IMG/VR virus record: IMGVR_UViG_3300027648_000001
Coordinates: 1-64,000 of that record
Direction: 5' to 3' (one strand)
DNA from: a virus
DNA: 64,000 nucleotides
The position numbers and the translations under genes are program-made. Numbering within the stretch: position 1 is the stretch's first letter; every line of letters begins with the position of its first letter. The notes beneath the pieces were generated by a model, which had not been told where the DNA came from, searched no databases, and saw only the letters and a list, made by a program, of their open reading frames with translations. Shown here in pieces: positions 45,358 through 45,910 of the stretch.

Positions 45358-45783
45358 ATGACATAGATAAACGAAAAATACGTTTTTATCTTCATTCGCA
45401 CCGACCTTCCATTTGAGCAGCAAATTATCCAGTCGAACCATGCTACTTATCACATGGCGTCCCTTACTTATCAGGACGGCACGCCGAATATTGTCCTAAT
45501 TGGGATGCCAGACCTCGCCGCGCTTAAGCGCGTCCTGGCTAAGCTACGTGCTAACAATATCTTGCACTACCCTTGGACCGAGCCTGATTTTAATTTTGGG
45601 CTGACGGCGATTGCAACTGGTCCGCTGTATGGAGAACAGCGTGAAATCCTTAAAAACTACAGAGTTTATTCGCCCGTAGCTCAAAACACAGAGCGCCCCA
45701 TTCTAAACGGGGAGTATGCAGGTGGAACCCCTGCCGGGCGAGCCAATGCGGGAGGCACGGCTACTAGTGCGGTGCGGCCTTGA
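45358..45783 (+). CDS. PTH2-fold (peptidyl-tRNA-hydrolase-2-like) protein with in-frame TAG at codon 3
   Basis: ATG ACA TAG, then an open frame INEKYVFIFIRTDLPFEQQIIQSNHATYHMASL...NIVLIG...GLTAIATGP...ILKNYRVY that matches the PTH2 fold pattern from its first beta-strand. The ORF-track ATG 45454 would truncate the fold. The 3' 114 nt run through a tRNA gene. Confidence 0.55.
45670..45745 (+). tRNA. tRNA-Sup (CUA), class I, Gln-like amber suppressor
   Basis: Hand fold: acceptor TCGCCCG/CGGGCGA (U1-A72), D arm GCTC-AAAACACA-GAGC, anticodon arm CCCCA-TTCTAAA-CGGGG (A31xC39), T arm GCAGG-TGGAACC-CCTGC, G73, CCA. Lies inside the PTH2-like ORF. Confidence 0.7.
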
Positions 45784-45800
45784 GTGGCACTCCCGCTCCA
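45748..45800 (+). ncRNA. tRNA-like minihelix / truncated tRNA ending in UCCA
   Basis: 7-bp stem GCGGGAG/CTCCCGC followed by T-CCA (Gly-type end) enclosing only 35 nt, including the hairpin GCAC-GGCTACTA-GTGC. Confidence 0.3.
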
Positions 45801-45811
45801 ATTTTGCCTAA

Positions 45812-45910
45812 GCGTGCGTAGCTCAATGGTAAGAGCAACGGTCCCTAAAACCGTCAGAGCAACCAGTTTTAACTGGTTGGTTGGGAGTTCAAGTCTCCCC
45901 GCACGCTCCA
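45812..45910 (+). tRNA. tRNA-Sup (CUA), class II amber suppressor with very long variable arm
   Basis: Acceptor GCGTGCG/CGCACGC, D arm GCTC-AATGGTAA-GAGC, anticodon arm ACGGT-CCCTAAA-ACCGT, ~28-nt variable region with 8-bp stem CAACCAGT/ACTGGTTG, T arm GGGAG-TTCAAGT-CTCCC, U73, CCA. Confidence 0.75.

Follow-up and report, generated by a model that had tools for sequence, protein, structure and literature searches.

Recoded phages (genetic code 15, in which TAG encodes glutamine; crAss-like, Lak, and other gut phages) carry tRNAs with a CUA anticodon in standard-code hosts, and the role proposed for these tRNAs is translational control of selected genes via suppressor supply. tRNAs of the same kind, annotated as 'Sup-tRNA', occur in cultured jumbo phages that use the standard code (GAP32, XacN1, RsoM2USA, ME3, and XbC2). 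The authors of the XacN1 report could identify no target genes for its suppressors (PMC5852040), and the RsoM2USA paper offers only speculation on suppressor function (PMC8504454). Here we analyze 64,000 nucleotides of a large phage (IMG/VR virus record IMGVR_UViG_3300027648_000001, positions 1 to 64,000; this whole stretch is referred to here as the window), in which two tRNA genes with a CUA anticodon lie downstream of a gene whose third codon is TAG. We regard it as fairly probable that the two CUA genes are working amber suppressors in a conserved phage module and that the gene directly upstream, referred to here as the gated gene, is their cis-linked client. GAP32, ME3, XbC2, and RsoM2USA carry the same gated gene, which makes it a candidate target for the suppressors of standard-code jumbo phages.

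Unlike recoded phages, which have many TAGs in late genes, the phages described here have a single TAG that follows the start codon by 1-8 codons in one small gene or in a few. They also keep TAG as a stop, and they come from varied metagenomes and include cultured jumbo phages of Proteobacteria. Engineered suppressor feed-forward loops and AND gates in E. coli combine an early amber codon with a co-regulated suppressor, both of which are needed (PMC7969014; PMC13276491), and a suppressor-tRNA feed-forward 'leak dampener' would share its architecture with the gated gene and its tRNAs (PMC7969014). Those gates are synthetic, whereas the phage module appears to be natural and conserved, and its output is a predicted tRNA-ester hydrolase. 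In pyrrolysine and selenocysteine recoding, a dedicated tRNA likewise reads a stop codon in few genes while the codon remains a stop elsewhere. The phage tRNAs differ from the pyrrolysine system in lacking the tRNAPyl architecture, and no pylS or pylBCD-like gene turned up among the scanned open reading frames (ORFs). Unlike in both recoding systems, the amber codon of the phages is found before the folded domain and at distances that vary, so that no special residue would be needed.

A literature search found no paper that connects phage suppressor tRNAs with a PTH2-like gene or with an amber codon close to a start. The two tRNAs are themselves of a known kind, and the gated gene is the new element. 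The module appears to represent targeted, start-proximal amber gating within the standard code, a form of stop-codon recoding with which these tRNAs had not previously been linked. Earlier target searches may have failed because they read TAGs at gene ends, while the conserved TAG lies at codon 2-9 of a gene that is truncated or skipped in annotation.

An amber codon at the start of a gene that directly precedes two tRNA(CUA) genes

The module comprises the following features.

45323-45351, plus strand: promoter-like site TTGACA-17-TACATT, the best match in 44500-46700 (10/12 positions)
45358-45366, plus strand: putative amber gate ATG ACA TAG (Met-Thr-amber) at the start of the PTH2-like gene, with the TAG at 45364-45366
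45367-45669, plus strand: coding region of the predicted PTH2-fold domain, 101 codons, directly abutting tRNA 1
45670-45745, plus strand: tRNA(CUA) number 1 (tRNA 1), G73 type, 76 nt, with U1-A72, encoded CCA, and non-canonical D and T loops
45748-45800, plus strand: conserved structured spacer, mini-tRNA-like, with a 7-bp acceptor-like stem (GCGGGAG/CUCCCGC), two small hairpins inside, and then U-CCA
45812-45910, plus strand: tRNA(CUA) number 2 (tRNA 2), U73 type, 99 nt, with loop CCCUAAA, a 28-nt variable region with an 8-bp stem, and encoded CCA

A first-pass annotation of the window, which described the two tRNAs, had proposed a search for in-frame TAG codons in conserved genes. We found one at 45364-45366, in the upstream gene that this annotation had missed, and an in-frame UAG that would require read-through is conserved in 36 of 38 homologues. 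The sequence ATGACNTAG occurs once in the whole window. No ATG, GTG, or TTG is present before codon 30 (45454) of the domain frame, and the ORF list gives a 109-codon ORF (45454-45783) that overlaps tRNA 1; the true coding region begins further upstream. The frame from 45367 encodes INEKYVFIFIRTDLPFEQQIIQSNHATYH..., and that of the syntenic IMG/VR contig L008, which was found via the 670-aa protein encoded at 50668-52680 (66% identity), encodes ISESYVFIFVRTDIPLPQQFVQSNHATWH... (L numbers denote related contigs and loci). Between the TAG and the first ATG, GTG, or TTG, 29-30 codons are conserved between the window and L008, with differences mostly in the third position.

Since the -10 hexamer of the promoter-like site ends 6 nt before ATG 45358, the mRNA of the gated gene is probably leaderless; close relatives share this layout (-10 hexamer, approximately 6 nt, ATG). 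At its other end the domain has no stop codon (...NYRVY, 45669), and the frame continues through tRNA 1 to a TGA at 45781-45783, which lies in a conserved hairpin loop. The same stop-less end running through a tRNA is present in L008, L043, L045, L050, L053, and others. If ribonuclease P cleaves at 45670, the remaining mRNA would have no stop codon; maturation of the tRNA and translation of the gated gene may therefore exclude each other.

The amber codon is conserved and co-located with tRNA(CUA) genes

Homologues were drawn from IMG/VR (24 loci), a protein database (371 hits), contigs of selected hits, and GenBank phages, and the counts given here refer to 38 distinct homologues read at the DNA level. 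An identical protein (P0002) is encoded on a 103-kb contig. In 36 of them, ATG, 1-8 codons, and TAG precede the domain; TAA or TGA never takes the place of TAG. The ATG usually lies two codons before the TAG (MT, MH, MS, MA, or ML followed by the stop) and sometimes 3-8 codons before it, and the TAG lies 2-11 codons upstream of the conserved domain. Many of these ATGs have a clear Shine-Dalgarno sequence (e.g., taggagctagaaATGacgTAG in L068 and ctaggaggctcaaaaaccATGgcaTAG in L057). The codon after the TAG is not ATG, GTG, or TTG in 29/36 (ATT, ATA, ATC, AAT, AAC, AAG, ACC, GTT, GTA, GAT, GGG, or CTG), and a start codon follows directly in 7/36 (three ATG and four GTG; L043, L051, L052, L069, L075, L084, and L086). 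When 146 kb of these loci were scanned for a Shine-Dalgarno sequence, ATG, up to 8 codons, a stop codon, and an ORF of at least 80 codons, the stop was TAG in 17 cases, TAA in none, and TGA in two. A purine following TAG would favor suppression, and one is present in 35/36; the window's few genuine TAG stops are not clearly different, and we did not use this as support.

Database entries reflect the presence of the amber codon in several ways. Proteins starting in the first beta-strand (MFVRQD..., VRQD...) are truncated calls, while in 'MTQI...' proteins a gene caller working with code 15 has rendered a TAG as Q. Where a homologue appears normal (MNDPR..., MQDSPH...), ATG ACA TAG lies directly before the called start. 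The gate is found in the cultured phages GAP32 (Cronobacter; leader ggggtgtaacATG GCA CAA TAG AAT), RsoM2USA (Ralstonia; leader aaaggagttttaaaATG TTG TAG ATT), Arash (Salmonella), ME3 (Acinetobacter), and XbC2 (Xanthomonas). Their records truncate the gated gene (GAP32), give it no feature (RsoM2USA), split it into two coding sequences (Arash), or start the coding sequence after the match begins (ME3 and XbC2), and they annotate a nearby 'Sup-tRNA', 'tRNA-OTHER anticodon CTA', or 'tRNA-Pyl (CTA)'. The Arash tRNA (L081 5310-5384) is labelled 'tRNA-Phe' in GenBank; its loop, CUCUAAA, is that of an amber suppressor.

At 31/36 gated loci, the flanks that were fetched contain between one and three CUA tRNAs. 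RsoM2USA, for which one CUA tRNA was reported (PMC8504454), brings the number on record to 32/36; L048, which has none on record, ends at a contig edge. The first CUA tRNA often begins at the nucleotide after the last conserved codon of the gated gene. At two loci the tRNA abutting the gated gene is called 'Thr(AGU)' by ARAGORN (L059 3320-3395 and L085 1958-2033), although bacteria do not normally encode this anticodon. A CUA tRNA lies further downstream in L085, and none was found in L059.

Two of the homologues have no gate. In Klebsiella phage RaK2 the gene begins at an ordinary ATG and the surrounding 40 kb contain no CUA tRNA, which fits gate and suppressor going together. In XacN1, which has two CUA tRNAs (PMC5852040), the PTH2-like domain is the C-terminal part of the 279-aa ORF364 (L088 973-1812). 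The N-terminal part of ORF364 contains an HD-like motif (WHDIGKP) that hints at a role in tRNA 3'-end metabolism. Two further, unrelated genes in other phages carry the leader aaaggaga...ATG ACA TAG (L057 4972-5451 and L075 4322-4645). Since they share this leader and have no start codon for 75 and 82 codons, respectively, the amber gate appears to be a reusable cassette.

The gated gene is predicted to encode a divergent PTH2-fold protein

We modelled the gated protein with AlphaFold2. A first run with 6 sequences was poor (predicted local distance difference test [pLDDT] 59.8), and an alignment of 81 sequences gave a pLDDT of 95.4 and a predicted template modelling (TM) score of 0.88. The top 14 Foldseek PDB rows are all PTH2-family or PTH2-like chains (probability 1.0, TM 0.68-0.81), with human Bit1, four archaeal PTH2-family proteins, S. 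solfataricus Pth2, and the uncharacterised Atu0240. A 23-sequence profile matches PDB peptidyl-tRNA hydrolase 24bt_A (E 0.005), aligning hhIRtDL...vQs.HA, and Pfam PTH2 (PF01981) is weakly matched by 15 of the 23 members (best E 0.001). A single-sequence Pfam search and a 5-sequence profile gave no match for the gated protein. The model indicates that the gated protein is a divergent PTH2-fold protein, with the same fold as PTH2 enzymes (archaeal and eukaryotic Pth2, human Bit1) and their motif hhh(R)xDL...Q..HA at the first strand and helix. As established for Pth2, the PTH2 fold hydrolyses the ester at the tRNA 3' end, and the gated protein is predicted to be a hydrolase of a tRNA 3'-end ester bond. 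Since GAP32 also encodes a canonical PTH2 (GAP32_382) and RaK2 has an ORF188 noted as similar to archaeal peptidyl-tRNA hydrolase, the gated protein may be a specialised paralogue.

Both tRNA(CUA) genes have the features of amber suppressors

Judged by their sequences, both genes of the window are real tRNAs and amber suppressors, given their Rfam scores, the CUA anticodon and encoded CCA, and compensatory changes in related contigs; neither could plausibly have arisen by chance. The Rfam tRNA model (RF00005; gathering score 29 bits) finds tRNA 1 at 45670-45742 with 45.1 bits in a local search and tRNA 2 at 45812-45907 with 58 bits in a whole-window scan, with the anticodon CUA in each. ARAGORN missed both at default settings and called only tRNA 1, as tRNA(cta), after its threshold was lowered, so that the check by covariance model and ARAGORN suggested in the first-pass annotation upholds both genes through Rfam and one through ARAGORN. 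Among approximately 40 such tRNAs from related loci, the anticodon loop is nearly always YUCUAAA, and CUA in a 7-nt loop with A37 is kept. The suppressors fall into three discriminator classes (G73, U73, and A73), up to three of which co-occur in one phage.

Two other identities were considered and rejected. tRNA-Pyl has a six-bp anticodon stem, a 3-nt variable loop, one base between acceptor and D stems, and a small D loop; in the tRNAs here the anticodon stem has 5 bp, the variable region 5 nt or 28 nt, and the D loop 8 nt, with two bases between acceptor and D stems (UA, positions 8-9), and the label 'Pyl' from ARAGORN reflects only the anticodon. An initiator-type CUA tRNA that starts translation at the UAG was rejected because an upstream ATG with a Shine-Dalgarno sequence or promoter is conserved and because the anticodon stems of these tRNAs do not have the three G-C pairs characteristic of initiators.

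All elements of tRNA 1 that had been listed before are present: acceptor stem UCGCCCG/CGGGCGA, D stem GCUC/GAGC, 7-nt anticodon loop UUCUAAA with U33, T stem GCAGG/CCUGC, and G73 followed by CCA. The odd elbow described with them is likewise borne out by the sequence, as the D loop (AAAACACA) has no GG and the T loop is UGGAACC, in place of the canonical G18 G19 and T54-Psi55-C56. In addition, an A31.C39 mismatch, not reported earlier, closes the anticodon stem. The variable region of tRNA 1 has 5 nt, its anticodon stem 5 bp, and its D loop 8 nt, with UA at positions 8-9. Homologues lie at L008 4919-4994, L043 435-510, and L045 8220-8295, the last with a UUA anticodon. Across 14 G73-type tRNAs, 12/15 predicted pairs show compensatory double changes, and non-canonical T loops recur within this family. 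A non-canonical elbow (D loop AACGAUA, T loop GUAAGCA) is also seen in a tRNA-Thr(UGU) of the window (44462-44535, plus strand; Rfam 47.8 bits, missed by ARAGORN), whose acceptor and D stems resemble those of tRNA 1.

The first-pass annotation had likened tRNA 1 to a supE-type glutamine suppressor. The E. coli GlnRS identity set comprises a weak 1-72 pair, G73, G2-C71, G3-C70, G10, and U35. tRNA 1 has U1-A72, G73, G3-C70, G10, and U35, which fit, but its 2-71 pair is C-G instead of G-C. Its closest paralogues in the window are Thr(UGU), Arg, Lys, and Asn at 0.63-0.64, with the top six all at approximately 0.62-0.64 identity, and neither tRNA-Gln of the window is among these six, which argues against a Gln-derived origin. 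The G73 type as a whole has a weak 1-72 pair (U-A or A-U), G73, and U35, like E. coli supE (glnV CUA) and supB (glnU UUA), and both CUA and UUA anticodons occur in it, each one step from the Gln anticodons CUG and UUG. Unlike supE and supB, tRNA 1 has C-G at 2-71, a non-canonical elbow, and no special similarity to the phage's own tRNA-Gln. These features are compatible with glutamine charging and do not prove it.

tRNA 2 has the acceptor stem GCGUGCG/CGCACGC, U73 and CCA, and a canonical D arm and T arm (GG; UUCAAGU). Its position 33, which had escaped earlier notice, is C in place of the near-universal U (loop CCCUAAA). The counterparts of tRNA 2 in L008, L043, and L058 have the loop CUCUAAA, as do most relatives, and C33 recurs independently in L057_5575, L063_5925, and Acinetobacter phage ME3. 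Long-arm homologues lie at L008 5114-5211, L043 577-675, L058 3677-3776, L052 3863-3966, and L075 5084-5187. Across the six long-arm tRNAs, 16/31 consensus pairs show double compensatory changes, four of them within the variable arm, and AGAGCA at the base of this arm is invariant. The previously described length, CUA anticodon, variable region of about 28 nt with an 8-bp stem, and U73 all stand. A class II tRNA of Leu/Ser/Tyr type does not: the long arm is there, but U73, the class-I-type body (D arm UAGCUCAAUGGUAAGAGCA), whose variable loop carries an inserted hairpin, and the lack of clear kinship to Leu, Ser, or Tyr tRNAs speak against it. Once the arm is taken out, no single paralogue of tRNA 2 stands out, with Leu(UAA), Leu(CAA), and His all at 0.70. 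At the equivalent site behind the first suppressor, L050, L054, and L055 have ordinary class I tRNAs of 75-76 nt, and other U73-type suppressors (e.g., L045 8736) are of this form too. Our data indicate that the long variable arm is a lineage-specific insertion. Most U73-type tRNAs have G1-C72, C2-G71, G3-C70, and U73, which form the acceptor part of the E. coli tRNA-Gly identity set.

A long-arm homologue in the distant phage L045 (8474-8571) has retained the acceptor stem, the T arm, the AGAGCA arm, and U73-CCA; a 6-nt loop (AGCAAU) with no CUA takes the place of the anticodon loop, and a separate class I CUA tRNA lies at 8736-8811. In the spacer between the two tRNAs, the outer stem shows compensatory G-C to C-G and A-U to G-C changes (RNAalifold, four phages). 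The first loop of this mini-tRNA-like element holds UAG and CUA triplets (GGCUACUAG), and the corresponding loop of L045, whose first tRNA has a UUA anticodon, has UUAG twice.

The order of genes in the window (Glu(CUC), Thr(UGU), Lys(UUU), ORF, tRNA(CUA), spacer, long-arm tRNA(CUA), Y RNAs) is also that of L008, and L043/L044 have the same arrangement with an ORF 78% identical to that of the window. The closest relative by terminase type, L006 (80% identity), lacks the whole module, and this absence marks the module as mobile or dispensable. Neither the tRNA region nor the 20 kb around it had a match in GenBank phage DNA, an exact-pattern scan of IMG/VR for tRNA 2 found nothing, and the Ro60-based relatives L001-L005 were too distant and too differently arranged to be useful.

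A proposed suppressor-dependent gate and its alternatives

We propose that the gated gene would be transcribed from its own promoter and that its translation would start at ATG 45358, with UAG met at codon 3. If a phage CUA tRNA, whichever of the two and with whichever amino acid, out-competes release factor 1 there, the ribosome would continue to the PTH2-fold protein of approximately 100 residues. The hydrolase would be made only when the phage suppressor tRNA is present, processed, and charged. Gene and tRNAs are probably on the same transcript, since no other promoter-like site was detected between them. They would form a coherent feed-forward gate: without charged phage suppressor, no hydrolase. 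The variable distance between TAG and domain suggests that the inserted residue is irrelevant and that the codon acts as a switch, and since the TAG sits right after the start codon, a failed attempt would cost only a dipeptide.

The purpose of such a gate is the weakest part of this reading. We prefer a purpose in which the output of tRNA-ester hydrolase is tied to the level of suppressor activity, either as negative feedback on the suppressors or for clearing peptidyl-tRNAs that arise from read-through. Phage transfer-messenger RNA (tmRNA) genes near the module (L059, L066, and L071) point the same way.

If the gate works as proposed, it would be a translational AND gate that occurs in nature and relies on a suppressor tRNA, and it would tie stop-codon suppression directly to tRNA-ester hydrolysis. 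It would also stand midway between the standard code and the codes of TAG-recoded phages. The gate bears on annotation too, since gene callers either truncate gated genes or assign code 15 by mistake to whole contigs. It is directly testable in cultured phages that infect Cronobacter, Salmonella, Acinetobacter, Ralstonia, and Xanthomonas.

Several observations weigh against the proposed gate. A circuit whose sole output is its own gated gene would be pointless, and it does not account for a benefit of suppression to the phage. XacN1 has suppressors yet an ungated homologue, which means that the gated gene is not their sole target and that suppressors have other clients or roles, and the gated genes of L057 and L075 suggest that the hydrolase is not the sole client. 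No CUA tRNA was found within the fetched flanks of approximately 3 kb in L059, L066, and L071. C33 in tRNA 2 and the abnormal elbow of tRNA 1 could each reduce decoding efficiency. Finally, unlike PTH2 enzymes, the gated protein falls below the Pfam PTH2 threshold (12.5 bits for the window protein, with a cut-off of 23) and lacks the GK of the PTH2 motif in the alignment.

A wider version of the gate is possible, and we put it forward tentatively. It would be a natural, self-contained code switch of large standard-code phages in which one to three suppressors unlock a small regulon of genes with a 'Met-Thr-UAG' leader, and the PTH2-fold protein, as its universal member, would give homeostatic control by acting back on the suppressors or on read-through peptidyl-tRNAs. 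Such a switch would be what the suppressor tRNAs of jumbo phages are for, and fully TAG-recoded phage genomes could plausibly have evolved from it.

The alternative that survives best, although we think it unlikely, is that the suppressors chiefly serve other ends (reading through TAGs of host or phage, or translating other gated genes) and that the gated hydrolase is only a sensor or damper. Read-through could then yield C-terminal extensions or sabotage host termination. The suppressors of XacN1, which has no gated homologue, fit this explanation, as do the differing discriminators (G73, U73, A73) of the up to three suppressors per phage, the other gated genes in L057 and L075, and the tmRNA genes that adjoin the module in L059, L066, and L071. 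So do plus-strand genes of the window that end at TAG in or near frame with the next gene (753 into 905 aa and 670 into 207 aa); counting a third, shorter junction (87 into 224 aa), these are three of the five well-supported TAG genes. TAG-bridged pairs are, however, not significantly enriched (3 among approximately 10 TAG stops versus 3 among approximately 32 others), and the 670-into-207 junction is not conserved, since the next gene overlaps in another frame in L006 and L008 uses TGA. On these grounds we rejected programmed read-through of the TAGs that end the 753-aa and 670-aa genes. None of these targets equals the hydrolase gate in conservation.

It is less probable still that ATG-ACA-TAG is a two-codon mini-ORF that truly ends at the UAG, with the hydrolase made by re-initiation at the next codon and the CUA tRNAs unrelated or only modulating. 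Two-codon minigenes provoke peptidyl-tRNA drop-off and interact genetically with Pth (lambda bar minigenes), which would fit a Pth-like gene, and in 7/36 gated homologues ATG or GTG directly follows the TAG. In most homologues, however, the next codon is not a start codon, and none follows for up to 58 codons. Furthermore, any stop codon would serve for re-initiation, yet the stop is TAG in all 36 gated homologues, and CUA tRNAs are found at the same loci.

We also asked whether the two RNAs might not be decoders at all but tRNA-like RNAs of a Ro60/Y-RNA module (decoys or Ro60 ligands) or decaying tRNA genes, which we judge very improbable. Their location between the tRNA array and five Y-RNA-like genes with Ro60 would agree with this, as would the abnormal elbow of tRNA 1, C33 in tRNA 2, and the 6-nt loop of the L045 long-arm homologue. 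Against it stand the perfect acceptor stems, the encoded CCA, the strong covariation, and the conservation of the CUA loop with A37 in approximately 40 tRNAs of phages among which only L043 and L049 have Ro60.

Genetic code of the window

Our data indicate that the genome is not recoded and that TAG is an ordinary stop outside the gated gene. The first-pass annotation had counted at least ten ORFs ending at TAG, and a crude gene call agrees, with TAG stops in 10/42 genes, five of the ten on long, well-supported genes. Its conclusion that the role of the tRNAs is not simple genome-wide recoding also holds, as TAG ends conserved genes at their natural C-termini: the TAG of Ro60 coincides with the end of the Pfam vWA_Ro60 profile, and the 670-aa protein has the same C-terminus in homologues, with TAG in L006 and L007 and TGA in L008. 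No further amber-gated gene was found within the 64-kb window. That the phage uses code 15, with TAG read as an amino acid across all or a block of the genome, is the least credible alternative, close to negligible: suppressor tRNAs are a hallmark of recoded phages (Borges et al. preprint, 10.1101/2021.08.26.457843; Mgcod preprint, 10.1101/2022.06.29.495998), and some pipelines call short contigs with the gated gene family as code 15, but here long ORFs (3155, 1029, 962, and 905 aa) are intact under code 11, TAG is interchangeable with TGA at conserved C-termini, and TAG as sense merges only four plus-strand ORF pairs, with a single gene with an internal TAG in 64 kb.

Genomic context

The window contains 35 tRNA genes, and all 20 amino acids are covered; default ARAGORN found 31 tRNAs. 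Downstream of the CUA tRNAs lie the following features.

Approximately 45995-46053, 46073-46199, 46220-46341, 46359-46511, and 46528-46609, plus strand: five tandem Y-RNA-like genes, read from the sequence
46648-48336, plus strand: Ro60/Rsr orthologue (TROVE and vWA domains; Pfam TROVE 5e-51, vWA_Ro60 5.8e-51, profile to the last position)

Each Y-RNA-like gene begins with GGGTCGG and ends with YTTTTATCY, and the second and third have tRNA-like T and D arms. Only one matches Rfam YrlA, below threshold (46083-46189; 41.6 bits versus a gathering score of 69, E 1e-7 for an 801-base stretch). The array is conserved in L008 and L043/L044. Ro60 likely starts at ATG 46678, behind GGGAGG, and its TAG end is genuine. 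The linkage to Y RNAs and Ro60 is specific to close relatives of the window, and the conserved core, as far as the compared loci indicate, is the gated PTH2-like gene with the CUA tRNAs.

Phage-encoded tmRNA genes of the permuted type, which is known in Alphaproteobacteria, occur in L003 (13447-13793), L059 (1505-1794), L066 (1291-1558), and L071 (1363-1556), at 1-2 kb from either the gated gene or Ro60. In distant phages, the Ro60-linked tRNA arrays include tRNA-like genes of 92-99 nt (L002 13139-13237 and L003 14731-14822) that have the anticodon UAU, a 6-bp anticodon stem, a long variable arm, and the T loop AUCGACA. A tRNA-like gene in such an array seemingly lacks the D arm (L003 15689-15764).

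Bacterial tRNA-Leu normally has a long variable arm. All three tRNA-Leu genes of the window (UAG, UAA, and CAA; 39728-39803, 40149-40224, and 41385-41459) have 75-76 nt and no such arm, and the L008 versions have 77-83 nt. A tRNA with a CAU anticodon (35880-35955, minus strand; Rfam 41.5 bits, missed by ARAGORN) has mismatches at 1-72 (A.C) and 7-66 (G.A) and could be an Ile2- or initiator-like species. HNH homing-endonuclease-like ORFs lie among the tRNA genes (36495-37235, 39197-39742, 40322-40837, and 42008-42673), and the same region (36495-42673) also holds a phosphoesterase (37640-38152) and a vWA-domain protein (38470-39153). The only recognisable part of the 3155-aa ORF (24644-34111) is a C-terminal Ig-like domain (ASH/HYDIN/DUF1573-type). 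The portal protein (53324-56212; 962 aa) has a P22-like portal domain at residues 701-858 and a weak LAGLIDADG-like match at residues 578-639, which may be an intein or a homing-endonuclease insertion.

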